Source: Candidatus Omnitrophica bacterium UBA6249
Lineage (GTDB): Bacteria > Omnitrophota > Gorgyraeia > Gygaellales > Profunditerraquicolaceae
NCBI GenBank assembly: GCA_002441305.1
Contig: DJVT01000003.1
Span: 39,226-103,225, forward strand
Direction: 5' to 3'
Length of the DNA: 64,000 nt
Every line of letters starts with the position of its first letter. The first letter of the stretch is position 1. The notes beneath the pieces were generated by a model. That model had not been told where the DNA came from and searched no databases. It saw nothing but the letters and a program-made list of their open reading frames with translations. Made by a program: the position numbers and the translations under genes. Positions 3,650-64,000 of the stretch are shown here, piece by piece.

Positions 3650-4782
3650 CAGAACACCTTCTTCTTGAACTTCTTTATCGCCAGGGAAAACATAAGCAAG
3701 GCAAAAAGCAGCAAAAACAAAGCCTCGTCCCACATCACGTCTATCCCGTTGCCTTTCAGGAAAAGGCCACGCAGTATTGTCACATAATAACGCGCCGGGA
3801 TAAAATAAGTGACTGCCTGGACAGCCTGTGGCATATTGAATATCGGGTAGATAAAACCAGACAGGAGCATCGTCGGGATAAATGTGGTCAACATAGCCAG
3901 CTGGCTGGCCAGAAGCTGCGATCTGGCGACGGTAGAGATAAATATCCCCTGCGAAAGGGCACCGACCAGGAACAAGGAACTTAAGAATACAAGCAGGCTG
4001 TAGCTCCCCCTGAAAGGAACGCCGAAAAACAGCCTGGCCATCACCACTCCCACAAAAAGGTCAAGGAAACCGATCGTAAAATACGGGATGAATTTGCCAA
4101 TGATCAACTCCGGGGCTTTCACGGGAGTGGAAATAAGCTGTTCCATCGTCCCCCTCTCCCACTCTTTGGCTACACAGATAGAAGTAAGCAAGGCGGCGAT
4201 GATCATGATAATCATCGCGATGACCCCGGGTACAATAAACCAGGTGCTGCTCAGGCTCATGTTGTACCATATCCTCGAACGCATATCTACGGAGCCCGGC
4301 TGGCTGACGCCATGGCGGTTAAGGAAATCGACGATCAGTTTTACGTTATAACCCGTTACTACGGAACGTACGTACCCCATGGCGATGGTGGCGGTATTGG
4401 AATCGCTTCCGTCAACAAGCAGCTGCAAAGGAGAGGATTTGCCCCCTTCGATAAAATGGGAAAAATCCTTGGGGATGACCAGGGCCATGATCACGTCCCC
4501 GCTGTCAATCATGCGCTGTATATCCCGGTAGTTATCCGTATATTTCACGATCTTGAAATACTTGGAGTTCCTGAAATTGAGCAGGAAATCGCGTGACAAC
4601 TGCGAAGAGGCATCCTGGTTCCATACTACGGTCCTCACCCTGTCTATATCCAGCGACAGGCCGTAGCCGAATATAAGCAGCAATAAGACGGGGATGAACA
4701 ACGCCAGGGCCAGAGAACGCGGGTCGCGGCGTATCTGGATAAATTCCTTACTGGATATGGCCAGGACTCTCTTAAAATTCAC
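3649..4782 (-). CDS. ABC-2 type transporter permease (YbhS/YbhR-like)
   Basis: 377 aa, paralogous to the downstream permease (SSKEFIQIRRDPRSL N-terminus and the same architecture). Confidence 0.85.
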   Translation of the reverse strand: MNFKRVLAISSKEFIQIRRDPRSLALALFIPVLLLLIFGYGLSLDIDRVRTVVWNQDASSQLSRDFLLNFRNSKYFKIVKYTDNYRDIQRMIDSGDVIMALVIPKDFSHFIEGGKSSPLQLLVDGSDSNTATIAMGYVRSVVTGYNVKLIVDFLNRHGVSQPGSVDMRSRIWYNMSLSSTWFIVPGVIAMIIMIIAALLTSICVAKEWERGTMEQLISTPVKAPELIIGKFIPYFTIGFLDLFVGVVMARLFFGVPFRGSYSLLVFLSSLFLVGALSQGIFISTVARSQLLASQLAMLTTFIPTMLLSGFIYPIFNMPQAVQAVTYFIPARYYVTILRGLFLKGNGIDVMWDEALFLLLFALLMFSLAIKKFKKKVF

Positions 4783-6465: not shown

Positions 6466-7299
6466 CTAATCTATGATATAGGCGTCTGCAGGCATGCCGG
6501 GCTTAAGCTCCAGACTGGAATTATCGACCCTGACCTTTATCCTGTAAACCAACTTGACCCTTTCCTGCGTAGTTTGTATAGTCTTAGGGGTAAACTCAGC
6601 TTCACTGGAAATAAAAGATACCCACCCTTTATACTTCTTATCCAGATAGGTATCCGTGACGACATAAGCCTGCTGGTTCAATTTCACCCTGCCCAAGTCG
6701 GTTTCATTTATATAGGCGGTAACCCAAAGGTTATTCAGGTCGATTACGGTAAATACCGGCGCGCCTATCTGCACCACTTCCCCGGCAAGGGCGCTTTTCA
6801 CCAGCACGTAACCGTTGAGGGGGGAACACAGCTCGGCAAACCCGAGCCTCGTTTTGGCAAGCTCGAAGGATGCATTCAATGCCTCGATATTTGCTTTATC
6901 CGCGTCTGCGAGGGTCTTGGCCGCGTCCCTCTTTTGCATGGGGATTGCCCCGGCCTTAAAAAGGTTCTCCGCACGTTCATAATCAAGCTTATCCAGGGCA
7001 TACTGGTGTTCCGCGGCCCTTAAGGCCCCCTCTGCGTTATCGCGTATCCTGGTCAACTCATCCGTGTTCAACCGGGCCAGCGTATCGCCTTCCTTGACCA
7101 CCTGCCCTTCATCGGTAAGCAGTTCGATGATCTGCCCCTGCACGCGGAAAGACAGACGCACGTCATCCCCCTCTATATTCCCGGAAACCTTGATAAAGTC
7201 GCGGCGGTGTTCGCCGGCCCTCCAGAAATACGCCGCGGCTATGCCGCAGGCAACCAGGACAAAAACGACAAGTGCAACCGGCTTAATTTTTTTGCTCAT
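6466..7299 (-). CDS. HlyD-family periplasmic adaptor (YbhG-like)
   Basis: N-terminal TM anchor, coiled-coil middle, C-terminal barrel (LKPGMPADAYI). It sits upstream of the two ATPases and two ABC-2 permeases. Confidence 0.85.
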   Translation of the reverse strand: MSKKIKPVALVVFVLVACGIAAAYFWRAGEHRRDFIKVSGNIEGDDVRLSFRVQGQIIELLTDEGQVVKEGDTLARLNTDELTRIRDNAEGALRAAEHQYALDKLDYERAENLFKAGAIPMQKRDAAKTLADADKANIEALNASFELAKTRLGFAELCSPLNGYVLVKSALAGEVVQIGAPVFTVIDLNNLWVTAYINETDLGRVKLNQQAYVVTDTYLDKKYKGWVSFISSEAEFTPKTIQTTQERVKLVYRIKVRVDNSSLELKPGMPADAYIID

Positions 7300-8854
7300 T
7301 TATTCCTCCCGATAGGAAACTCTTTCCCATAGTCCTGTCCAACTCCGCCTGGGCCATAAGGTAATCATAAATTGCCTGGGAAAGATTCGTCTCGACCTGG
7401 CTCAATGACACCTGGGCGTCAAGCACATCCAGGTTTTTTGCCTCCCCGTTATCATAGCTTACCCGGGCTATCTCCAGGGCCTCCCTAGCCTGCGCAACGT
7501 TATCTTTTTGGGAATCGATCAACTGCTCTGCCTCTTTCAGGTCAAGACAGGCCCGGCGCACGTCCACGGCGATACGCTCAACCACGTTCTCCTTGGTCAA
7601 GAGCGCCTGGTTATAACGTACCTTTGCGGCGTCAACCTTGGCTTTGGTGGAAAATCCGTCAAAAACCGCCAACGAAAACTTCAAGCCGATATTCCAGTTA
7701 TTATGCGCCCTGTTGAACATATTGCCCCAGTCATTCGAACGGAAATCATACCCGGCTCCTGCGCTGACCTGGGGGCGCCATCCGGATTTAGCCATCTGCA
7801 CCGACCATCTGCTTATATCTATGCCCAGAGTCCTCAAAATCATCTCAGGTTTGTTAAGATAAGCCTGCTGGAGAAAGTCGTCCTCCCTGACCTCGACCAG
7901 GCTATAAGTCAATTTCTTGTCGCTCACCTCCAGGCCGCTATCCTGTTTATAGGAAAGGAGTTTTTTCAACTCCGCCTTTATGAGCTCAACGGCATTTTTC
8001 GCCTTGACCAGCTCCGGGAGCGTCAGGGAGACCTGTACGCTCGACTGCAACAGGTCGAACCTCGAGGAAAGCCCCTGGGCGTACCTGTTCTTTACGTCTT
8101 CATAATGCTCTCTTGCGTTACCGGTGAGCTCCTGGGCAATCCTTTCCGTCTCGTAAGCAAGCAGCAATCCGTAATAAAGGCGCCGTGCCTCAAACTCTAT
8201 ATCAAGCTTCTTGGCGCGTAAAGTCTCCTCCGCCGCTTTAAGGTTTAGTTTGGCCTGGCTCAGGTTGGCAGTATTGAAACCCCCGCTGTAAAGCGTCTGG
8301 TTCAGGGAAACCCCTACGGAATTATCGTTTTTGTACCCCGTAAACACTCCGGGATCCTTTTTTCCCGCAGCCGCACTCGCGGCGACTGCTGCATTGCGGG
8401 TATACCCTGCATCAAGGTCAAGCTGCGGCAGAAGCCTGCTCTTTGCCCCTCCTATATCCGCGCGGGCGATCCCCAGCTCCTGCTCCTGAATCTGTATATC
8501 TATATTATTCCTGAATGCCGTACGTATTGTCTCCTGCAGGGAAAGCCCAGGCTCCTGGGCGCACGCCTTCCCCGCAAAAACAAAAATAAGGGCGATCATG
8601 ATGCAGAGGGATTTGGAAAGGATGCTTTTGATTTCGTTGTAAATCGGGCTGCGCGTATTGACTTGGAAAAACCTGGCGTTGGCCTTATACTCGCTTGAAA
8701 GCAATCCGTTCTTGTGCAGGCTTTCCAGGGCCCTTTGGAAGGTGCCGGGTTTCTTCTTCAACAGGCGTCCTATTTCCTGTATATAGAACTGGCGCTTGGG
8801 ATGGGTATAGAATAATTTAAGCAGCTTAAGCTTATTCTTGCTTAACAGGCTCAT
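7283..8854 (-). CDS. TolC-like outer-membrane efflux protein with an in-frame N-terminal winged-helix-like domain
   Basis: The ORF runs 7283-8884, with a likely start at MSLLSKNK (8854). The first ~82 aa after that start (ORF residues 11-92) look like a wHTH regulator (YIQEIGRLLKKKPGTFQRALESLHKNGLL). Next comes a signal-peptide-like IMIALIFVFAGKACAQE, then an OEP/TolC repeat domain. An alternative internal start at 8599 has no obvious SD. Confidence 0.7.
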   Translation of the reverse strand: MSLLSKNKLKLLKLFYTHPKRQFYIQEIGRLLKKKPGTFQRALESLHKNGLLSSEYKANARFFQVNTRSPIYNEIKSILSKSLCIMIALIFVFAGKACAQEPGLSLQETIRTAFRNNIDIQIQEQELGIARADIGGAKSRLLPQLDLDAGYTRNAAVAASAAAGKKDPGVFTGYKNDNSVGVSLNQTLYSGGFNTANLSQAKLNLKAAEETLRAKKLDIEFEARRLYYGLLLAYETERIAQELTGNAREHYEDVKNRYAQGLSSRFDLLQSSVQVSLTLPELVKAKNAVELIKAELKKLLSYKQDSGLEVSDKKLTYSLVEVREDDFLQQAYLNKPEMILRTLGIDISRWSVQMAKSGWRPQVSAGAGYDFRSNDWGNMFNRAHNNWNIGLKFSLAVFDGFSTKAKVDAAKVRYNQALLTKENVVERIAVDVRRACLDLKEAEQLIDSQKDNVAQAREALEIARVSYDNGEAKNLDVLDAQVSLSQVETNLSQAIYDYLMAQAELDRTMGKSFLSGGINEQKN

Positions 8855-8947: not shown

Positions 8948-10150
8948 TTATTCTTTGTTCTTCATTCCGGGAGGGAACTTCTGCCAGGGGTATCCCCGGG
9001 CAGCCTGGTTAAAACCTAAATCAAACAACTCGCGCATTTCTTCGGGATCAAAAAGCTCTTTGGCCTTTGAAATATGGCTTGCCGGGATATAAGCAAGGTT
9101 AAAATCCCCCTTGCTCCTGTCGGTAAATACATATAACTGGTACAGGTCCCCGATGCTTTGGGCATTTGTCATGGCGTCAATCGTCCGCTCGGCGATCGCA
9201 GGGATGTTATCCGGGACTTCTTTGTAAAAAGGATCGACATACCCGTTTCTTATCACATAGATTTCATATCTAACAGCCGATGCATCGATACCTTTTTCTT
9301 TAAGCGCCTTGTCGAGGCCCTGCAGCACATCGTAAAGGAAAAACACCTGCCTGCTTATTCCTCCATCGACATGCATTTCGTCATACGACTGATTATTGGC
9401 GGTTACTTTTAAATAAACCGGCGGGAAGGCAACGGGAATCGACGCCGACGCCAATATAATCCTGCGGAATAACGTCAAGGCTTCCTCATTGCCGAAAGAA
9501 GCGATCTTGCCCATATCCCAGATCGCGAGGCGCCCCGCATCGAGATTAGTAGTGCCCACATAAAGCCTCCGCCCCTTATCATATTCTCCGGCGATATCTC
9601 TCAACAGCCTGGCGTCTATATATTTTTCGATGAGCCGCTGCAGCGGTACGGTACTGGCGACGGAATTGCTGAACGGGATCCTTATGCGGGGCGAACGCAT
9701 GCGCACTATATCCTTGGTGGAATAACTCGTATAAAATTCCTTCAGCTTGAAGTCGTAATCGCTCCCCAGGAAAGCAAAAGGAGCGATTATCGCCCCCGTG
9801 CTTATCCCCGTGACCGCCTTAAATAACGGGCGCTTGCCTGAATACGACCAGCCGTTCAACAATCCCGCTCCGTAGGCGCCATTGGCGGCGCCTCCGGAAA
9901 TAGCAAGAGCGTAATAAGTCTGGTCGGTTCCAAAATTAAAAAAGTGCGGGCCCTTTTTACCGTTTTCTTCCAGCAGCTTTACAAAATCCCGCTTAAAAGA
10001 ATCATTGGGCAGGCCGCTAAAAGCCCGGATCTCCCGCATGCCGTTGATCCCGGCAGTCCCCAATAAATCCGGCGGCACGGCGTGCCTTATGCCCGCGCAT
10101 CCGGAAAGCATGAAAATACCCAGAATTAAATAATGAAAACCTTTCGGCAT
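8948..10150 (-). CDS. patatin-like phospholipase, probable lipoprotein
   Basis: GxSxG nucleophile GISTGA, Gly-rich oxyanion region GGAANGAYGAG, and a DGG Asp motif (HVDGGIS). Start trimmed to MPKGFHYLILGIFMLSGCAG, which carries the lipobox LSGC. Confidence 0.85.
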   Translation of the reverse strand: MPKGFHYLILGIFMLSGCAGIRHAVPPDLLGTAGINGMREIRAFSGLPNDSFKRDFVKLLEENGKKGPHFFNFGTDQTYYALAISGGAANGAYGAGLLNGWSYSGKRPLFKAVTGISTGAIIAPFAFLGSDYDFKLKEFYTSYSTKDIVRMRSPRIRIPFSNSVASTVPLQRLIEKYIDARLLRDIAGEYDKGRRLYVGTTNLDAGRLAIWDMGKIASFGNEEALTLFRRIILASASIPVAFPPVYLKVTANNQSYDEMHVDGGISRQVFFLYDVLQGLDKALKEKGIDASAVRYEIYVIRNGYVDPFYKEVPDNIPAIAERTIDAMTNAQSIGDLYQLYVFTDRSKGDFNLAYIPASHISKAKELFDPEEMRELFDLGFNQAARGYPWQKFPPGMKNKE

Positions 10151-55914: not shown

Positions 55915-56739
55915 TCACTTCCAGGAAATTTTAGCAGGATTGCGCAGCGGTATCCGGCTATAACGGTATTTCGGATGGCCGATCATCATTACCGCTCCGG
56001 CTGTCGCGTGTGAAGATAAACCGGTGAATTTTCTTATTTTCTCCGACATGTTGATCGCCATATTCACATAACCCGCCCAGCAAGCTCCCAGCCCCAAGCC
56101 AAATGCCGCCAGTTCCAGATAGGTTGCCGCTATCGTGCATGACTGCGGGACCAGCGGGTCATCCTTAATCCCCTGGGCAATTACAATGCAAGGCGCGTTG
56201 CGGCAGATTAAATCCTCTCCATTTTTCCAGGCGCTGGCTAAACGGTCGAAACGAAAAGATATCGCCATCTGATTTTTAGCTTCCAGAAGCTCTTCGATCC
56301 ATTCCACGATCAAGGCGCCTAATTCACGCACTTTATCTTTGCCCATCACCGCGATCCAGCTCACCGGCTGGCGGTTGATCCCGGTAGGAGCATAACGGGC
56401 GATATCCAAAAGCTTCTCAATTGTTTCTTTAGCTACCGGCTCATCTTTATAGTTACGGATCGAGCGCCGGCTTTTCAGCAGAAGTTCTGTCTGTTCGGCG
56501 TTCGGCAGCTTTGCGTAATCCAGGCGCATCGCGTCTTTAACATCCATTGTCGAAAGCTTGATCGAACCCTTCGGGCAAAAAGCAAAACATTGGCCGCAGT
56601 TAATACAAGCCTCCCCGCCTCCCGGCACAAATTCCGGCACGCGCTCCTTCTCATTCATCTTCAAGATATGCATCGGACAGATCTCAACGCATTTCCCATC
56701 CCCGACGCAGGTTTTTTTATTGACTTCAATGGTAATCAT
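55915..56739 (-). CDS. nitroreductase-family protein with N-terminal 2x[4Fe-4S] ferredoxin domain
   Basis: CVGDGKCVEICP and CINCGQCFAFCP, followed by a nitroreductase fold (RRSIRNYKDEPV). Confidence 0.8.
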   Translation of the reverse strand: MITIEVNKKTCVGDGKCVEICPMHILKMNEKERVPEFVPGGGEACINCGQCFAFCPKGSIKLSTMDVKDAMRLDYAKLPNAEQTELLLKSRRSIRNYKDEPVAKETIEKLLDIARYAPTGINRQPVSWIAVMGKDKVRELGALIVEWIEELLEAKNQMAISFRFDRLASAWKNGEDLICRNAPCIVIAQGIKDDPLVPQSCTIAATYLELAAFGLGLGACWAGYVNMAINMSEKIRKFTGLSSHATAGAVMMIGHPKYRYSRIPLRNPAKISWK

Positions 56740-56776
56740 CCCTACCTCCACAATCCAAACCGCAACATGGTAAATT

Positions 56777-56790
56777 CCGGTCGCGACCGG
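56777..56790. repeat. degenerate copy of the GGTAG..CGGTCGCGACCG..CTACC palindrome family
   Basis: The core CCGGTCGCGACCGG is intact, but the flanks (GGTAAATT / GCGCCTACT) are no longer complementary. Confidence 0.7.
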
Positions 56791-56824
56791 CGCCTACTTA
56801 GTTTAAGAAAATAGAGCCGTCCCT

Positions 56825-57988
56825 TTATTCTATTTTTTGGCCGTCACTGCCGATAAAGATATTAAGATATTCGCGATATACGTAAGACTGCCCGTATTTA
56901 ATATCCTTGTCTTTGGGCGCCAATATGCCCTTTTCTATAAACCGGTTAATAACCGTCTGCGCTCCGGCACGCGTAAACCCTGTCCAATCCTTGACAAGTT
57001 TCACATTGACAATAGGCTGCGCGTATAATCTTGGCAAAACCATCACCGCGCTCTCCGAAGCCCTTTTACCCAGCGATTGTATCTTGGCCATATCCTTATC
57101 CCGCAAAACCGTAATCTTACCGACTATCTCTATAGCCTCATTTGCTATCTCGATAACCCCTTCAAGAAAAAACTCCACCCAGCTAGAGACATCTCCGTTG
57201 TGATATCCTTCGAGCTTTTCATAATATACTTTTTGATATTTTCTAAAATACGAGGATAAAAACAAAGCCGGTTTCTCCAAAAAACCTTCTTTCCATAAAT
57301 AAAACGGAATAAGCATCCGCCCTGTCCTGCCGTTGCCATCCAGAAACGGATGGATAGTTTCAAACTGAGCATGAAGCAGCCCGGCTTTTATCACCGTATG
57401 TGTAGCATCATCATTATGCATAAAATTTTCCAGATCGCCAAGCGCGCGCGTCATATCCTCAACCGGCGGCGGCACAAAACGCGCGTTATCCGGGCGTGTC
57501 CCGCCTATCCAGTTCTGGCTTCTTCGAAATTCTCCCGGATCCGAAAAATGTGTCTTCCTGGCGCCTTTCATTAACTGCTGATGCAGCTCGCGCATAAAAC
57601 GCAAGGTTATCGGGAAATTATCGGCAGTAACTCTTTTCATCCCATAATTGAGCGCTTTAATGTAATGCAGTATATCATCAACGTCCTCAGGGATATTGGC
57701 GCTCACCTTTACCTCAGCCTCAATGGCATCTACCATAGTCGCCATAGTGCCTTCAATCTGGCTGGAAGAAGCGGCATCTTTACGCAAATACATCAGAAGA
57801 AAGAAGTCTACGTCCGGCAGCAGTTTGGTTATACCATCAAGCTTGCCCAGCAAACGCGCCGCTTCTGTAGCTTTTTTTAAAATACCAGAAGAGAAATCAA
57901 ACCCCTCTTTCGGCGGAAAAGGATGCGGCACAAAGGCTTCGAAACCTTCCTTTTGACGCCTTTTTAGCCCTATTTCGATCAGTTTCAT
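56825..57988 (-). CDS. Fic-family protein (AMPylase-type) with autoinhibitory motif
   Basis: Fic motif HPFLDGNGRTGR, N-terminal SSQIEG matching the (S/T)xxxE(G/N) inhibitory helix, and a C-terminal wHTH-like tail. Confidence 0.9.
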   Translation of the reverse strand: MKLIEIGLKRRQKEGFEAFVPHPFPPKEGFDFSSGILKKATEAARLLGKLDGITKLLPDVDFFLLMYLRKDAASSSQIEGTMATMVDAIEAEVKVSANIPEDVDDILHYIKALNYGMKRVTADNFPITLRFMRELHQQLMKGARKTHFSDPGEFRRSQNWIGGTRPDNARFVPPPVEDMTRALGDLENFMHNDDATHTVIKAGLLHAQFETIHPFLDGNGRTGRMLIPFYLWKEGFLEKPALFLSSYFRKYQKVYYEKLEGYHNGDVSSWVEFFLEGVIEIANEAIEIVGKITVLRDKDMAKIQSLGKRASESAVMVLPRLYAQPIVNVKLVKDWTGFTRAGAQTVINRFIEKGILAPKDKDIKYGQSYVYREYLNIFIGSDGQKIE

Positions 57989-58012
57989 GTTTGTAACCTT
58001 TCATAGAATAGA

Positions 58013-58050
58013 TGTATACAAACTATACCACTTTGTATACATTATGTCAA
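58013..58050 (-). promoter_or_regulatory. near-consensus promoter of fic with a 10-bp inverted repeat bracketing the -10
   Basis: On the minus strand, TTGACA (58045-58050) is separated by 17 nt from TATAGT (58022-58027). The inverted repeat TGTATACAAA (58013-58022) / TTTGTATACA (58032-58041) brackets the -10. Confidence 0.55.
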
Positions 58051-58094
58051 GGATTAGATACAAGATACCTATTATACCTAAGGGGCATTTCTAT

Positions 58095-58124
58095 GGTAGA
58101 TGCCGGTCGCGACCGGCATCTACC
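58095..58124. repeat. 30-nt perfect palindrome
   Basis: GGTAGATGCCGGTCGCGACCGGCATCTACC is its own reverse complement. Confidence 0.95.
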
Positions 58125-58153
58125 AGGTTTTCTCAACCATCCCCTTTATTTCA

Positions 58154-58899
58154 TCACCGCGCCATCAACGCAAACACACCCCAACCCAGGTACTCACGCG
58201 TGTAAGTAGCGTAGCGCTCGGGTCCCGAGGTAAGTTCGGCTCGAACCTCTTTTGCCAGCTCATCGCCTGGATTGGCTTCAAGCCAGCGGCGCATGGTGAG
58301 CCATTTGGCCGCCTCGTATCTATCCCAACCGTCTTGGTTGGCCAAAACCATTTCCACGACATCGTAACCAAGTCGGCCAAAAGACGCCAGAAGTTCCGGA
58401 AGCATAAGGAAGTCAGAGATTGAGGTGGCAAGACACCCCTTGGCAACATCTTCTGTCGGCGGTAACTGCCGCCAGTAGGGCTCGCCGATGAGGATAATCC
58501 CTCCTTTACGCAGGCTCCGCGCCAGAAGCTCGATCGTGCCGGCAACTCCCCCGCCAATCCAGGCGGCGCCGACACAGGCTGCACATCGACCTTCTCGTCA
58601 GAGACATACCCGGCAGCATCGCCATGAATAAACTTTACTTTATCTGCAACGCCGAGTTCTACAGCGCGGAGTTTCGCTTGCTCGCTGAACAACTCACTCA
58701 TATCAACGCCGGTGCCGATGATTCCGTAATCACGTGCCCAAGTGCACAACATCTCCCCCGAGCCGCTGCCAAGGTCAAGCACTCTATCTCCTTTTTTCAG
58801 ACGCAGCGCCGCGCCCAGAGTAGCGAACTTTTCCGGCGTAAACGGATTGTGAATGCGATGAGCGCTTTCAGTAATATTAAATATACGTGGAATGTCCAT
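58154..58899 (-). pseudogene. class I SAM-dependent methyltransferase interrupted by a single frameshift
   Basis: The N-terminal frame carries VLDLGSGSGEM up to ...DEKVDV. The sensible continuation AACVGAAWIGGGVAGTIELLARSLRKGGIILIGEPYWRQLPP...MLPELLASFGRLGYDVVEM... is in another frame. The switch lies near 58575-58590. Confidence 0.75.
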
Positions 58900-59049
58900 T
58901 GCAAAAATCTCCTTTTCTTAAAACTAATGGGTCTCTACTTAATCGTATTTACGCGCATAGTTCTCAAATAATGACTCATACCATTGCCTCATATTTATTC
59001 TTTTGTCCGTACTGACTAACCCCAGCAAACTACCCATATCTTATTAAAT

Positions 59050-59307
59050 CTATAAAAAAGTCTTAACTAAAAGTACAACTGTTAAGATTAACATTACCCA
59101 AGTCAATCCTTTGATCGTTTTTGTTAATTTTATCATCGCTTCATTTTGTTGCTGAGTTATTTTAGCAGATCTACAATTTAAAATAGCTTTTGCCACTTCT
59201 CTATTTCTTTCAGCTAGAGGTTCTCCAGACCCCATAAAACACTGCTTCAGAATATATTCTATTAACTCTTCATCAGTTTTTTTGTTTAATTCATCTAGAT
59301 ACGACAT
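59050..59307 (-). CDS. small tail-anchored membrane protein, unknown function
   Basis: Start chosen at the ATG preceded by GAAGGAGAGAA. The 85-aa product is MSYLDELNKK...KGLTWVMLILTVVLLVKTFL with a single C-terminal TM. The gene is AT-rich. Confidence 0.5.
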   Translation of the reverse strand: MSYLDELNKKTDEELIEYILKQCFMGSGEPLAERNREVAKAILNCRSAKITQQQNEAMIKLTKTIKGLTWVMLILTVVLLVKTFL

Positions 59308-59388
59308 TTCTCTCCTTCTCATGCAGCAATCACAAATTAGCAACAATAATCTTATAGGCGCTTCTTGGGTTTTGTTTCCTCGGAGTAA

Positions 59389-59502
59389 CATGGTAGGTGC
59401 AGATCGTAACCCGATATTTCATTGTAATCTGGTAGGTGTCGGTCGCGACCGACACCTACCAGGTGATGATTAGATCGTGAATTGCGACCTGCACCTACCA
59501 TG
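59389..59502. repeat. nested palindromes: a 30-nt perfect palindrome inside a split copy of the same family
   Basis: The inner unit is GGTAGGTGTCGGTCGCGACCGACACCTACC (59431-59460). The outer arms CATGGTAGGTGCAG (59389-59402) and CTGCACCTACCATG (59489-59502) are perfectly complementary. AGATCGT(A/G)A is repeated at 59401-59409 and 59472-59480. Confidence 0.9.
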
Positions 59503-59525
59503 GTTTTTTCTTTCCAATCGCCCCC

Positions 59526-60023
59526 TTAAAATAAATTCTCTACTACCCAACCACAATTCAAACATTCTCTATAGTCTTCTTTTTGAATAGTTTTGCAAAA
59601 CGGACAGACCCATTCTCCATTTCTAATTTCAAGCAAATCTCTTTTTTTAAATTCAAATAATGCTTTTGCAAAAACACTCTTTACAGAAAACCCCTCCTTA
59701 GACCAATGATTAACAAAATCCTTAACTTTCCTATTGTTAAAGAAAACCGACCAATAAAATTCTTCTTTTTTACTTATTCCCTTTATATATATGAAAACGA
59801 AACTCCACACAAAAATAAGGAATAATATACAAAGCAAAATATTAAAATGGCTAACGAACACTAGTATTAAAAAACTAACAATGATTGATCTGAAATAGCA
59901 CGTCATCTTTTTATCTAAGAAATTAGAAAGATCATAAAGTACACTATCCTTATAGAAAATACCAAGAGATTTTAAACTTATAATTTTGATATTTATATCC
60001 CCTTGCCAAATATCGCTTGCCAT
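59526..60023 (-). CDS. two-TM membrane protein with C-terminal zinc-ribbon, unknown function
   Basis: GGAG RBS. The hydrophobic stretch FRSIIVSFLILVFVSHFNILLCILFLIFVWSFVFIYI is followed by the C-terminal CPFC...CLNC. The gene is AT-rich. Confidence 0.55.
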   Translation of the reverse strand: MASDIWQGDINIKIISLKSLGIFYKDSVLYDLSNFLDKKMTCYFRSIIVSFLILVFVSHFNILLCILFLIFVWSFVFIYIKGISKKEEFYWSVFFNNRKVKDFVNHWSKEGFSVKSVFAKALFEFKKRDLLEIRNGEWVCPFCKTIQKEDYRECLNCGWVVENLF

Positions 60024-60076
60024 TTTCCATCTCCGAACTCACTGGTGTCCTAAATCGAATAATCTAAAAACATATA

Positions 60077-60120
60077 TATACTTTCTTCTTCCTCGACCGC
60101 ATTTACTTAAACCCCAGAGA
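60077..60120. repeat. intergenic ~44-nt direct repeat, copy A
   Basis: TATACTTTCTTCTTCCTCGACCGCATTTACTTAAACCCCAGAGA matches copy B at 32 of the first 39 positions (ungapped, counted by hand). Confidence 0.8.
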
Positions 60121-60124
60121 ACAT

Positions 60125-60159
60125 CACTTATTTTAAAAAATAGAACCGTCCCCTTTATT
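60125..60159. repeat. 35-nt direct repeat shared with 56795-56829
   Basis: CACTTATTTTAAAAAATAGAACCGTCCCCTTTATT versus TACTTAGTTTAAGAAAATAGAGCCGTCCCTTTATT. Both abut or overlap a gene stop codon. Confidence 0.75.
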
Positions 60160-60160
60160 T

Positions 60161-60832
60161 TTAATGTTCCAATAAAGGGATATAGAACTTTCCATGACGC
60201 CCTTCATGCCGAGATAATAGTCGGCAACTCTTTAACAAAGAAATAATCTTAGCGAATCGACAAGCCGTTCCGCTCATTAATGCCCTAATTTGCTGTTCTC
60301 CTTGTGGCCCATGATCTCGAATATTTTGTAAAATCAACAAACCGATTTGTCGATACCTTTCTGGCGCTCCAGTAACTTCACATTTACCATTAAATATCTG
60401 GAAATCAGCTCCATAAGGAATCTTTAACAATTCATTTCTTACATGTGTTTCTAAATCTCCGATATGTATATAATTCTTTCTAGATAAATGTCCAATATCA
60501 GTCAATAACCAACCAGGAATTTTACCTCTAGATCTTCTATTTCTAAAGGTTATAAAAATTGAACTGGATGGTTTAATCGAGAGGGCATATCCTAATTCAA
60601 GGACTACATTAGGCCTAAAACCAGTTACGTCAAAAACACAAGCTGATGAATTTTCTATGTTTTCCTTGATTAATTCCCATATATCTTCTGCAGGTTGTCC
60701 AATACGTTTATCTATTATTACACATAAAAGGGGTGTATCTTTTTCTATCCTTTTCTTAAGATTATCAAACTGCCGCTTGATCTTTTTGTCATTATAATTA
60801 CACCCTAGAAATATTCGATTACGATCAATCAT
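60161..60832 (-). CDS. unknown protein: N-terminal TIR/nucleoside-2-deoxyribosyltransferase-like Rossmannoid domain plus C-terminal wHTH-like domain
   Basis: GGAG RBS. RIFLGCNYND...SSACVFDVTGFRPNVVLELGYALS resembles the D-x-T/G...N-V..E-x-G-x-A signature of NDT/TIR-like domains. The C-terminus GEQQIRALMSGTACRFAKIISLLKSCRLLSRHEGRHGKFY is wHTH-like. The gene is AT-rich. Confidence 0.45.
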   Translation of the reverse strand: MIDRNRIFLGCNYNDKKIKRQFDNLKKRIEKDTPLLCVIIDKRIGQPAEDIWELIKENIENSSACVFDVTGFRPNVVLELGYALSIKPSSSIFITFRNRRSRGKIPGWLLTDIGHLSRKNYIHIGDLETHVRNELLKIPYGADFQIFNGKCEVTGAPERYRQIGLLILQNIRDHGPQGEQQIRALMSGTACRFAKIISLLKSCRLLSRHEGRHGKFYIPLLEH

Positions 60833-60896
60833 TTATACTCCTTTTTTTTAAAAAATCTCCACCCTTGACAAAATTCTTAAAACCTAGAGACCCTTG

Positions 60897-60940
60897 TATA
60901 GTTTCTGCTTCCTCGGCCGTAGCGACTTAAACCCCGAGAG
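60897..60940. repeat. intergenic ~44-nt direct repeat, copy B
   Basis: The sequence is TATAGTTTCTGCTTCCTCGGCCGTAGCGACTTAAACCCCGAGAG, in the same orientation as copy A and 820 nt from it. Confidence 0.8.
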
Positions 60941-60953
60941 CGTTCTTTAAGTA

Positions 60954-61781
60954 TTATAAGAATATATCAGCTATCTTTAAATCTCGTACCAATTCAACAG
61001 TTTTATTGTTATACTTAATCAAAAATCTTTGGGTATCGTTTATATCTAATGTATTTTGAGGAAAACCGAAGTAAAATGAAGATTTGATGTTATCCTTGTT
61101 ATAAAATTGCTCTCTTGAAATAGAGCATCGCACTCCGATAGCATTCCCTAAATCACTTCTCCTAAAATGCGGGACTGCTTGATGTTTTAATCGATTCGCC
61201 TGATACTTAAACCTTAAATCCTTATTCAAGTTCTGTAATCCAACATACTTCTTTATTAAATCAGAGGAGAGACTCCCATTAAGCCATTTCTTAAATTCTT
61301 CAAATTTTATTTTACTAATAATCTCTCGAAGAGCCGTTTCCCATTCCTCTTCTTTAAGTTGGAATTTATTTAACACCTCATCTATTTTTTGTTTTGGGAA
61401 ATTACCGATAAGATCACTATAACTAGAATAAGCAACCCTAATCAACAACTTCAAATAATCAAAGCTAGCGTTGTAATAAACAATCGAATTCATAAGATAA
61501 TTACTTACTAATAATTCTTTAGCATTAGAATCATCACTTGAAAAAACAGTTCGACTAATTTTCTTCACTACAGATTCGGCAGATAATATTAAATTCATGC
61601 TCGCCAATTCTAAAACTGCTTTTGTATCTGCGTATTGATTAACAATAAGCACCCTATGGTTATCGTTCACCTCTCGATTCTTAAATAGCTTAACAGTAAG
61701 AGCTTGCGTTACAGATATATCCTCAAGCTTATCTAACCGCCAATTAATGTTGTCCTTTTCCGAAGCTATAAAATCAGCCAT
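60954..61781 (-). CDS. unknown helical protein, possibly HEPN-like
   Basis: 275 aa, AT-rich. YYNASFDYLKLLI and KYQANRLKHQ are reminiscent of N-x-x-K-H type HEPN families. This is weak, motif-level evidence only. Confidence 0.35.
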   Translation of the reverse strand: MADFIASEKDNINWRLDKLEDISVTQALTVKLFKNREVNDNHRVLIVNQYADTKAVLELASMNLILSAESVVKKISRTVFSSDDSNAKELLVSNYLMNSIVYYNASFDYLKLLIRVAYSSYSDLIGNFPKQKIDEVLNKFQLKEEEWETALREIISKIKFEEFKKWLNGSLSSDLIKKYVGLQNLNKDLRFKYQANRLKHQAVPHFRRSDLGNAIGVRCSISREQFYNKDNIKSSFYFGFPQNTLDINDTQRFLIKYNNKTVELVRDLKIADIFL

Positions 61782-61805
61782 CGCCCTTTTCTCATTGACT
61801 TTACC

Positions 61806-61967
61806 TTAATTCTTCTTATATTCCAACCCCTCCACCACTGCTTTAAACTCTTCCAACGCAGATTCCAGATCTTTAACAATATCTTCAGCGATTTCATCTG
61901 GATCAGGCAAGTTCTCCAGGTCTTCAAGTGAGTACTCTTTCAACCAGAAGGTGTCTCGAGTCGACAA
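61806..61967 (-). CDS. 53-aa acidic helical small ORF (possible gene remnant or small partner protein)
   Basis: Not in the track because it is under 60 aa. A TTG start at 61967 gives LSTRDTFWLKEYSLEDLENLPDPDEIAEDIVKDLESALEEFKAVVEGLEYKKN, with the stop at 61806. Confidence 0.25.
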   Translation of the reverse strand: MSTRDTFWLKEYSLEDLENLPDPDEIAEDIVKDLESALEEFKAVVEGLEYKKN

Positions 61968-62021
61968 TTATAATAGATTTCGTGCCCTTTATTAGCAGCC
62001 ACGGCGTAGTAATATAAAATG

Positions 62022-62510
62022 TTACGATGCTGGTCCACTTAATTTTTTATCAATCCTCTCAACTCCTTTAGCAGTCAAAATCTCCCCATTGAGTTGTAAT
62101 ATGTTTCCGTTTTGATGGGGACTAAAAGGAGCATACATAGCTATCAAACAATGCGGGATTTTATACGCTTCAAGCACTGAAAACTCACTATTGAAAATAA
62201 CACCAATCAAAAAATCGAATTCCTTCTTTTTAAGATTTCGAATAACTCCCAACTGGCGGGATTTGGTTACATCGCTTAATCGTCTAGATTTAATCTGATA
62301 CCGTACCCCTTTGGCATCAATAGCATCAAACCCCGCGTTTGAGCTCGTCTGGATAGAAAGTCCCAACTTTTCCGCAACCAACCACTCCGCATAATCGGCT
62401 ACGGGATTATTCCGCGTCTTAACAACACCGCGATCCTTGAGCTCATCCAAAACAGCGCCAAACGTGATCAACAGCTGACGAACTGATAGTTTCTTAAAAT
62501 TACCGATCAT
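62022..62510 (-). CDS. PD-(D/E)xK-like protein translationally coupled to hsdR
   Basis: Start trimmed to [14 protein letters not shown], whose ATG (62510-62508) overlaps the hsdR TGA (62509-62507) as [22 protein letters not shown] fits a D...(E/Q)xK nuclease-like core. Confidence 0.45.
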
Positions 62511-64000
62511 TCTGCTTTCTCCACCCACCAATCCGCCAATACTTCCGCCTGCTTCAACACGGTATCTACGGCTTTCTGTTGCATATCGGGTGGATAACCG
62601 TATTTATTCAGCGTACGCCGCACGATAACCATCAGGCGGGCGCGGGCGCTTTCTTTCAGATTCCAGTCGATACTGGCATTCTTGCGCACTTTGTCGGCTA
62701 TTTCCCGGGCAATAGTCTTCAGCGTTTCATCACCCAGAACCTTAACTGCGCTGTCATTTATTTCCAGAGCGGTATAAAAGGCGAATTCCTCCTTAGACAG
62801 TTTCAACTTCTCTGCTAAACCGTCCACTTCGCGCACCTGCCGGGCGATCGCCAGCAATTCCTCGATAATCTCTGCGGTAGACAGAAGGTTATTCTGATAC
62901 TTCTTAATCGACGCTTCCAGCAATTCCAACAGTTTCTTGCCTTCGGTAATGTTAAAATTCAGCCGCGCTTTAATCTCGTCGTTAAGTATTTTATTCAATA
63001 ACTCGATGCCCAGATTCTTATGCTGCAAATCTTTGACTTCCTGCAAAAACTCTTCGGAAAGTAACGATATCTCCGGCTTCTTGATCCCGGCCGCATCAAA
63101 GATATCCACGACTTCGATAGACTCGACCGCCTGGTTGACGATCTGGCGGATTGCGCTCTCATAATTCTTTTCTCCGGTCCCGCCTTCTCCCTCGAATTTA
63201 AGCAACCGCGCCCGCACAGACTGGAAAAAGGCGATCTCATTGCTCAATTTCAGCGCCTCTTCATGCGGCACAGCCAAAGCGAAAAGTTTGGAAAGCGCGG
63301 TCGCTTCCTTGATAAAACGCTCCTTCACCTGCTCTTGGGAAAGGATGAACTCTTCCGCCTGCAGGATAATCGACAACCGCTCCGCTGTACCCACCTTGAA
63401 GAACCGCAGATAATCGAACCCGTGGAATATCTGACGCACCACCTCGATTTTCTCGGCCAACATACCCATGGCTTTTTCCTGGGTCTGGGCCGGATCGCCC
63501 TTTCCCCCGGAACTGGCGTAAAACGCCAACGCCTCTTTCAGCGCATTGCCGATACCGATATAATCCACCACCAACCCGCCCGGTTTATCCAGAAAAACCC
63601 GGTTCACCCGGGCGATCGCCTGCATCAGCGTGTGGCCTTTCATCAGTTTATCGATATACATCGTATGCAAACACGGCACATCGAAGCCGGTAAGCCACAT
63701 ATCCCGGACAATCACCAGCTTTAACGGATCCGCAGGTTCTTTCATCCTCTCGGCAAGCACCTGGCGGTCATTTTTATTCGTGCGATGGCATTTGGGAATA
63801 ACCAGATCATCCGGATCCTCGGGATCGAATTCCAGCTTATCCGAAGACGACGAAGTCATCACCACCTTCAATGCCCCTTCCTTCAAATCCTCGCTATGCC
63901 ACTCCGGCCGCAAAGCGATAAGCGCATCGTACAAAGCCACGGCAATCCTGCGGCTCATCACCACGATCATAGCTTTGCCGGCAAACACTTCCGCACGCTT
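62507..64000 (-). CDS. hsdR: type I restriction enzyme R subunit, C-terminal part (5' end beyond window edge)
   Basis: Helicase C-terminal motif VI ([12 protein letters not shown]) and a long helical C-terminal region typical of HsdR. The reading frame is open to position 64000. Confidence 0.9.

Follow-up and report, generated by a model that had tools for sequence, protein, structure and literature searches.

Repetitive extragenic palindromic (REP) elements and REPINs are reportedly mobilised by REP-associated tyrosine transposases (RAYTs), a finding said to go back to Nunvar in 2010 and to Bertels and Rainey in 2011. REP/RAYT and TIRYT systems are usually described as cargo-less repeats, mostly in Proteobacteria, and the cleavage sites of IS200/IS605 elements are read via a short guide next to the hairpin foot. 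Here, we describe a family of palindromes in a 64,000-nt stretch of DNA from Candidatus Omnitrophica bacterium UBA6249 (hereafter the window), a low-copy, lineage-restricted hairpin family that marks the ends of inserted modules in an Omnitrophota accessory island. Its closest described counterparts are of three kinds. First, GTAG-tagged REPs, which go with RAYTs, carry the GTAG unpaired at one end of the stem-loop (Di Nocera 2013, PMC3733652). Second, RAYT-like genes flanked by inverted repeats with GGGGWSAS form the TIRYT or TIRtron class (PMC3733652), which is TnpA_REP subclass 2.1 (PMC6006769). Third, the latter source describes subterminal hairpins of IS200/IS605 elements that are recognised by the Y1 transposase. 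Two of the window's palindromes are REP-like hairpins just inside the ends of a datable Fic toxin insertion into a defence island of this uncultured lineage. At about even odds (a probability of roughly 0.5), we propose that the palindromes are REP-like, GTAG-headed hairpins that form the subterminal ends of non-autonomous cargo modules and are recognised in trans by a Y1 transposase.

Palindromes and the Fic module junction

The initial annotation, made from the letters of the window, had listed four copies; all their sequences and coordinates were correct, and the two perfect palindromes proved even longer than listed, at 32 and 34 nt. The first, TGGTAGATGCCGGTCGCGACCGGCATCTACCA (58094-58125, 32 nt), contains the 30-nt GGTAGATGCCGGTCGCGACCGGCATCTACC (58095-58124), and the second, CTGGTAGGTGTCGGTCGCGACCGACACCTACCAG (59429-59462, 34 nt), contains the 30-nt GGTAGGTGTCGGTCGCGACCGACACCTACC (59431-59460). 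A third copy with mismatched arms (56769-56801; core CCGGTCGCGACCGG at 56777-56790) reads AAGTAGGCGCCGGTCG followed by CGACCGGAATTTACCA in the direction of the genes, and a fourth is split into half arms (59392-59406 and 59485-59499) with 78 nt between them that hold the 59431 copy. The palindromes are non-random: the degenerate 30-nt pattern matched twice in the window and not once in 100 shuffles, and no other loop-less palindrome with at least 16 paired bases occurs in the 64 kb. All four copies lie within 2.8 kb. The remaining 56 kb of the window has none, nor do the 10 kb that follow its high-coordinate end (contig L013; L-numbers are labels of the contigs compared), and scans with the half-site motif of the family, TGGYAGNYGNNGRTCG, found no credible copy in positions 1-56,700, in agreement with the earlier remark that the core was free of them. 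At 30-34 nt and 62-71% G+C, and intergenic without exception, the palindromes fall within the 20-40-bp, G+C-rich, extragenic range of REPs and REPINs. Further, all copies sit directly downstream of the stop codons of co-oriented genes, and the idea that they punctuate co-oriented gene modules was borne out. As RNA, 58094-58125 folds with -29.5 kcal/mol (z -6.3), and the fold z-scores of the palindromes, including the composite described below, range from -6 to -10; 56769-56801 alone folds no better than shuffles. A search of Rfam returned only sub-threshold matches to microRNA precursors, an identity that we rejected because the matches are those of generic long hairpins.

Relatives with an empty site reveal how two of these palindromes came to their positions. 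Contig L035 is collinear with the window on either side of the Fic gene (89% identity over the methyltransferase region, 58996-58134, and 88.5% over the nitroreductase, 56739-55907), and 1,394 nt are missing from it exactly between GGTTG and ATG. In the relatives, the methyltransferase-nitroreductase junction reads ...AAATAAAGGGG(G/A)TGGTTG-(T/G)TA-ATG, which in L035 is ...GGTGATGAAATAAAGGGGGTGGTTG-TTA-ATGATTAC...; the region upstream of the nitroreductase in L025 is the compact AAATAAAGGGGATGGTTG-GTA-ATG, with no Fic module. Judged from these aligned sequences, comparison of the window with the compact junctions of L035 and L025 shows that a 1,394-nt Fic module (56740-58133, minus strand) was inserted into an otherwise conserved gene junction. 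No palindrome is present at the empty site, and the comparison with it thus identifies the two palindromes as subterminal structures of the inserted Fic-carrying module: 58094-58125 lies 8 nt inside the junction at the upstream end in gene direction, a subterminal position like that of IS200/IS605 hairpins, and 56769-56801 lies ~28 nt inside the downstream end. In gene direction, the module consists of AGAAAACC, the palindrome at 58125-58094, a promoter/operator region, Fic, a 25-nt block, TTAAAC, the palindrome at 56801-56769, and TGTTGCGGTTTGGATTGTGGAGGTAGGG. The block-like sequence AAATAAAGGGGATGGTTG (58134-58153, minus strand), which directly follows the methyltransferase stop codon, occurs in the empty sites too and hence belongs to the target (resident DNA) and not to the cargo. 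The GGTT of this sequence and the AACC at the foot of the hairpin are complementary and would make a mini-helix. Five sites, homologous to one another, have the junction G(G/A)TT(G/A) joined to RGRAAAACC-hairpin, and the right module end holds a weak possible duplicate of the target.

The cargo is a Fic/DOC family gene (56825-57988, minus strand) with a sigma-70-like promoter of near-consensus sequence (58050-58022, minus strand; TTGACA-17-TATAGT). A 31-nt palindrome, ATGTATACAAAGTGGTATAGTTTGTATACAT (58012-58042), overlaps this promoter and looks like a putative autoregulatory operator of Fic. Beside the module, the reading frame of an S-adenosylmethionine (SAM)-dependent methyltransferase gene is broken into two that overlap (58165-58899 and 58154-58405, minus strand); its orthologue in L035 (4199-4945) is intact, with 248 aa and 89% nucleotide identity. 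Because the frameshift is identical in all contigs of the window species, this is probably a fixed methyltransferase pseudogene next to the Fic insertion.

The palindromes have kept their symmetry through paired change. The 58095 and 59431 copies differ at the symmetric positions 6/25 and 9/22, as first pointed out in the initial annotation, and compensatory changes are seen across nine copies from the window genome and a sister lineage, which yield the arm consensus GGTAGGTGCCGGTCG. Four variants (G6A, C9T, T3C, and C10A) each carry the same change in both arms. In the alignment, 4 of 14 pairs are changed on both sides and 95% of cells are paired, a level of covariation that only 1-3 of 500 shuffles reached; slid registers displayed no covariation, except for one cell at +2. 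Maintenance of symmetry implies either that hairpins form or that one arm serves as the template for the other during copying. Even without a link to an enzyme, the palindromes are a clean example of symmetry kept through paired change.

The composite palindrome and its relatives

The split copy belongs to a 114-nt composite near-palindrome (59389-59502), which is 78% self-complementary. The perfect palindrome at its centre (59429-59462) is separated by one spacer on each side (59407-59428 and 59463-59484) from the outer arms (59389-59406 and 59485-59502). The fold of the composite reaches -66 to -74 kcal/mol, depending on strand and flank (z about -10). The L-spacer-LR-spacer-R architecture is common to the composites of the window and of L028, a contig of the sister lineage, down to a half-site distance of 39 nt on either side, and the 34-nt inner palindrome is identical to L028 1517-1550. 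Relative to genes and blocks, the 78-nt inner module (59407-59484; spacer, inner palindrome, and spacer) has the opposite orientation in L028 and L030: compared with L028, identities number 91/114 with the inner 78 nt inverted and 86/114 with them taken directly, and the spacers match (18/20 and 16/20) only when inverted. The outer arms of the window and L028 composites are different variants of the family, and the flanking genes are unrelated. The composite occurs in three unrelated gene contexts (the window, L028/L030, and L025), with its inner part in two orientations and with a truncated form in L025 (L R spacer R, ~4390-4466), as would result from a deletion that runs from one directly repeated left half-site to the other.

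Two readings fit the composite. In one, an element of 78 nt without cargo entered two different palindromes at their centres, after GGTCG, in either orientation; in the other, the inner part of one ancestral composite was inverted between its outer arms. Nesting by self-insertion, as originally suggested, agrees with the architecture as one of these two readings, and the nested arrangement is not a one-off, as it recurs inverted and truncated. In gene direction, the composite is preceded by the block-like sequence TTTTAAGGGGGCGATTGGAAAGAAAAAAC (59503-59531, minus strand), which holds the stop codon of the open reading frame (ORF) 59526-60023. A protein-database search for other copies with a 49-aa ORF that reads through the composite found nothing, and neither did pattern scans of viral contigs or BLAST searches of the composite against plasmid and phage collections.

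Proteins identical to those of the window occur in Candidatus Omnitrophota metagenome-assembled genomes (MAGs), including GCA_028711535.1 and GCA_028716205.1. Among 185,579 species-representative genomes (596 Gb), a strict form of the palindrome pattern matched twice, in L001 (a Gammaproteobacteria MAG) and L002 (a Spirochaetota MAG). Both are without a block-like neighbour, other copies, or Y1 genes and are probably unrelated chance palindromes; a few chance matches are expected in 596 Gb because a palindrome needs only its 11 specified half-positions. The metagenome scan for the strict pattern gave one contig, L003, which is identical to L028 of the sister-lineage MAG GCA_041678965.1. The GNAT protein of the sister lineage is 86% identical to that of the window, and look-ups of it gave L024-L030. 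L024, L026, L027, and L029 carry a Y1 transposase, a nucleotidyltransferase, a mismatched-arm palindrome, and GNAT, and L028 and L030 carry a palindrome, DUF6036, a 223-aa gene, the 114-nt composite, and GNAT. Presence/absence polymorphism had been named as something to look for. Structural polymorphism is seen in the sister lineage, where contigs with an identical GNAT protein differ just upstream of GNAT, and not in the window species, whose contigs are all identical (see below). Logan contigs end at perfect palindromes (L007, L008, L010-L012, L015, and L016). We rejected these ends as polymorphism, since de Bruijn graphs break at palindromes longer than the k-mer and the overlaps are 100% identical. 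One of these contigs (L012, 1,353 nt) is exactly one palindrome-to-palindrome module, and such a module-length contig could be mistaken for evidence of circular cassettes.

All genes of the palindrome region are on the minus strand, and its G+C content goes down to 34-42%. In gene direction, type I restriction-modification (R-M), SIR2-HerA, and Mrr genes (partly beyond the window) are followed by DUF6998, small unknown ORFs, a TIR-like ORF, and the composite. Next come a small ORF and the frameshifted SAM methyltransferase, then Fic with a palindrome on either side of it, and finally the core genes for nitroreductase-ferredoxin, GNAT, and FMN reductase. No tRNA gene was found anywhere in the window. 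In the defence island that adjoins the palindrome array (window 60161-63988 and L013 1-10000), an HsdS/HsdR type I R-M system is interrupted by SIR2-HerA genes; the island also holds an Mrr-like nuclease and DUF6998, and one of its ORFs has a weak match to a CAP12/Pycsar TIR domain (E 8e-4, below threshold). In a related Omnitrophota island, a 53-aa ORF (MAEGGFVVKFDGKVVERCFAVAFDYDEWQYTINEKEKKELP...) occurs three times in 6 kb of L020 (1288-1449, 2486-2647, and 6492-6653), each time before a different defence-like operon (an unknown gene, an SNF2 helicase, and a PLD nuclease); copies 2 and 3 have the same preceding junction, GGGACGCTTCTGGRGTTTCTAAGTAGGAGG.

Blocks, Y1 transposases, and rival explanations

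A further repeat, the 25-nt block AAAGGGGACGGTTCTATTTT, is found after many stop codons. Of its copies in the window, AATAAAGGGACGGCTCTATTTTC (56802-56829, minus strand) directly follows the Fic stop codon, and the same repeat flanks the Y1 genes of relatives; an exact copy of AAAGGGGACGGTTCTATTTT (60126-60159, minus strand) follows ORF 60161-60832. A remnant resembling a miniature transposable element with inverted repeats (MITE) (…GGTTTAAGTAAATGCGGTCGAGGAAG…, 60052-60115, minus strand; second copy at 60872-60935) looks like the internal left part of a block-bounded element and includes a sequence similar to the left palindrome arm. Every GGTAG palindrome has a block-like sequence, AAAGGGG-N-Y-GGTT, 8-14 nt before it. 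The palindromes share no sequence with the 25-nt block itself and are not copies of the Y1 inverted repeat.

In the sister lineage and in more distant Omnitrophota (every lineage sampled), inverted 25-nt blocks flank the gene of a 225-aa PF01797 protein, and a 195-aa Y1 paralogue is flanked by palindromes of GGGGACAGTCCC abutting GGGGACTGTCCCC. The best NCBIfam match of both proteins is the REP-associated tyrosine transposase model NF047646, at 68.7 and 70.6 bits, below its curated cutoff of 80, and the IS200 model gave 22 bits. HIH and Y...NPV motifs are visible in the Y1 translation in sister lineages, the 225-aa protein has extra C-terminal sequence beyond the ~146-position RAYT core, the part in which subclass 2.1 is reported to have an HTH, and GGGGWSAS-type repeats are present at both genes (GGGGACAG at the 195-aa gene; GGGGACGG, with one mismatch, at the 225-aa gene in all lineages). 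By sequence, the Omnitrophota Y1 genes match the published TIRYT/TIRtron class. Homologues are numerous in Omnitrophota, mostly on one contig each, and the block repeats of Y1 genes are a moderately abundant family with dimers. Block doublets of ~90-120 nt with inverted block ends, found in both orientations (L025 885-980; L026 65-156 and 4894-4982; L035 7029-7147 and 8489-8606), look like MITE derivatives of the Y1 (TIRYT) element, and L025 5334-5660 is a Y1 gene with an internal deletion. With respect to the palindromes, Y1 genes (PF01797) lie 0.7-1.5 kb away in L024, L026, L027, and L029, MITE-like derivatives of the Y1 element are also neighbours of palindromes in the sister lineage, the MAG GCA_041678965.1 holds both a Y1 gene (L040) and palindromes (L028), and the L035 lineage encodes the same Y1 protein as L040.

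From these observations, we infer that the palindromes would form hairpins in single-stranded DNA and that a Y1 transposase would recognise the hairpins in trans. The enzyme would join modules next to block-like sequences at the G(G/A)TT(G/A) to RGRAAAACC-hairpin junction, with GGTT pairing with AACC at the hairpin foot, and GGTCG at the palindrome centre would be a secondary target that gives rise to the nested composite. Inserted hairpins would probably also act at the RNA level by stopping antisense transcription (the T-tract is on that strand) and by buffering the 3' ends of upstream messages. If the link to the enzyme is true, domesticated Y1 transposases could be a means by which accessory islands reshuffle their gene modules, and the filled-site/empty-site pair would offer concrete substrates for biochemistry. 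The description of the palindromes as REP- or MITE-like, also made at the outset, fits the GTAG/CTAC heads, the symmetric compensatory changes, and the position near the ends of an inserted segment; in the DNA scanned, the copy number is low and local, unlike that of classical REPs.

Several points weigh against mobilisation by a Y1 enzyme. First, the search for a RAYT or IS200-type TnpA that had been recommended found Y1 genes beside palindromes in the sister lineage and none in the window or 10 kb beyond its high-coordinate end. In L024, L026, L027, L029, and L032-L042, what flanks the Y1 genes is either the 25-nt block or GGGGACAGTCCC palindromes and never GGTAG palindromes, so the link between enzyme and palindrome is drawn from adjacency and the block-like neighbour. 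Second, palindrome copies are few and confined to one hotspot (4 in the window and 3-4 in ~60 kb of sister-lineage DNA), and their GTAG is paired and present at both ends, unlike that of classical REPs. Third, because the junction motifs all descend from homologous sequence, they lend the proposed target (GGTYG) and guide (AACC) no independent support. Fourth, the contigs of the window species are 100% identical over 56700-62100, with no sign of current mobility. Fifth, no one clean insertion turns either of the L026 and L028 alleles into the other, and a single deletion between direct repeats does not yield the L026 allele from the L028 allele. Finally, the mismatches of imperfect copies are G-U compatible more often on the gene-sense strand (9) than on the other strand (4), a difference that is not significant.

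The alternative that survives best, which we nevertheless regard as unlikely, is that the hairpins are primarily RNA elements, i.e. stem-loops of the 3'-UTR (untranslated region) that would end or insulate transcription or shield the messages upstream, and that, inherited with the 3' end of each gene module, they were spread by ordinary recombination and not by a dedicated enzyme. REPs are known to act at the RNA level as 3' stem-loops (PMC3733652). The location of all copies directly downstream of co-oriented stop codons, their very stable folds, and the (non-significant) excess of G-U compatible mismatches on the gene-sense strand would agree with such a role, as would the T-tract on the plus strand, where 58094-58125 is followed by GGTTTTCT and 59502 by GGTTTTTTC and where a terminator scan flagged 58094-58125. 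On the coding strand, the palindromes lack a U-tract, as originally observed, and the terminator geometry faces the strand without genes; the verdict that they are not classical terminators therefore holds for the coding strand and needs amending for the plus strand. An intrinsic terminator for the genes present was rejected on the ground that the U-tract is on the plus (non-coding) strand only, and the arrest of antisense or incoming transcription, of which REP and IS200 hairpins are capable, is plausible as a side function. An attempt to choose a strand by G-U wobble and folding energy was abandoned: in the L026 copy, 4/5 mismatches are G-U compatible on the gene-sense strand, but the overall counts are 9 vs. 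4 and the folding energies by strand (-65.7 vs. -70.5 and -71.4 vs. -71.5 kcal/mol) choose neither. Further, the left-end palindrome lies upstream of the Fic promoter and was inserted with Fic, and it is thus not simply the 3' end of the methyltransferase gene; with respect to transcription, the inner module of the composite is found either way round; and loop-less perfect palindromes of 30-34 nt and composites of four half-sites are untypical of terminators.

More doubtful still is a bolder version of the Y1 proposal, namely that palindromes and 25-nt blocks together make up a cassette-capture platform driven by an HUH/Y1 (TIRYT) enzyme. Hairpin-ended toxin or defence modules would be inserted serially beside blocks at the 3' ends of genes, with hairpin centres as secondary targets, and the result would be an integron-like array made by single-strand DNA transposition and not by a tyrosine recombinase.

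It is improbable, in our judgement, that the palindromes are crossover sites of site-specific cassette recombination of an integron- or lox-like kind, with 13-nt arms around a TCGCGA core and mismatched arms as products of recombination. Such sites would account for one palindrome per co-oriented module in a hotspot array in two lineages, for three junctions whose two arms belong to different variants (56769-56801, the L026 type, and the outer arms of L028), for the exact agreement of L026 and L028 up to the palindrome centre, beyond which they diverge, and for cassette-typical cargo (Fic, methyltransferase, nucleotidyltransferase, and small ORFs). However, neither the sister loci nor the genes annotated between ~46.8 kb in the window and a point 10 kb past its high-coordinate end include an integrase or recombinase domain, and the hallmarks of attC sites are missing. 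Variant-specific perfect symmetry favours structure or copying over sequence-specific binding of a dimer, and the palindrome-free empty site indicates that the Fic module did not enter there by site-by-site crossover.

Least probable of the alternatives is that the palindromes are passive by-products, i.e. local duplications of a junction sequence to which fold-back synthesis or gene conversion between the arms gave palindromic form, with neither a dedicated enzyme nor a function. The left arm resembles sequence inside block-bounded MITE remnants (…AAGTAAATGCGGTCG…), copy number is low, and a copying mechanism would yield symmetric variants without selection. Other inverted-repeat motifs also form abutting pairs that are perfect palindromes (GGGGACAGTCCC with GGGGACTGTCCCC in L024, at 7181-7223 and 7892-7918, and GGGACAG with CTGTCCC in L032, at 9093-9114), and the repeat system of these genomes appears to render its end sequences palindromic as a general habit. 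By-products would not be expected to stay perfect in two lineages in which a neighbouring protein is conserved at only ~86% identity, to share the same composite architecture in three contexts, or to take consistent positions at the ends of an inserted module. Xer/dif-like sites were considered and rejected.

Comparison with known systems

Integron attC sites are defined by R''/R' boxes (RYYYAAC ... GTTRRRY), extrahelical bases, and a length of ~57-141 nt. The palindromes resemble attC sites and CALIN arrays (clusters of attC sites lacking integron integrases) in being structured palindromic sites with cassette-specific compensatory variation, arrayed in an accessory region with one site per co-oriented, promoter-poor module. 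They differ in having no conserved AAC/GTT boxes and in an empty site without a recombination site. We rejected an attC identity, since GTT stands at the 3' boundary in only 2/4 copies, extrahelical bases are absent, simple copies are 30-34 nt long, and no integrase is nearby.

With IS200/IS605 elements and their non-autonomous derivatives, palindrome-associated transposable elements (PATEs), the Fic module shares subterminal hairpins near both ends of the inserted DNA and the absence of terminal inverted repeats beyond the hairpins. It may also share insertion beside a short conserved sequence, the lack of a clear target duplication, and guide-target complementarity at the hairpin foot. It differs from them in having no tnpA or tnpB inside the module, a Fic gene with its own promoter as cargo, hairpins that are perfect palindromes, and an apparent target that is an 18-nt block-like sequence and not 4-5 nt.

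With TIRYTs, the likeness lies in the Omnitrophota Y1 genes (225 and 195 aa), which are single-copy, match the RAYT model best, and have GGGGWSAS-type inverted repeats. Further, a palindrome abutting a sequence like an inverted repeat recalls the "bizarre" inverted repeats of P. putida and P. fluorescens, which are degenerate GTAG units joined to unrelated stem-loops. The difference is that the palindromes are not themselves the inverted repeats and that we know of no description of TIRYTs in which such palindromes accompany inserted cargo modules.

With respect to REPs, we describe the palindromes as working like REP/IS200-type hairpin ends and do not call them members, because no Y1 gene found is flanked by the same repeats, as the cognate RAYT gene of a REPtron is, and because dispersal in many copies over the chromosome is at most a possibility. 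Both of their ends have the GTAG (in one variant GCAG), paired with CTAC, their stems are loop-less and 14-17 bp long compared with 6-13 bp and loops of 2-3 nt in REPs, and they number a handful at one hotspot where REPs number tens to hundreds of dispersed copies. They also bracket a cargo gene, and their composites are of the L-spacer-LR-spacer-R type and not two complete inverted REPs. As in REPs and REPINs, however, they are short, G+C-rich extragenic palindromes that start with GTAG, complementary stem variants define sub-families, copies lie mostly downstream of co-oriented genes, higher-order inverted arrangements fold into hairpins of ~100 nt, and RAYT-like Y1 genes are present in the same genomes of the sister lineage.

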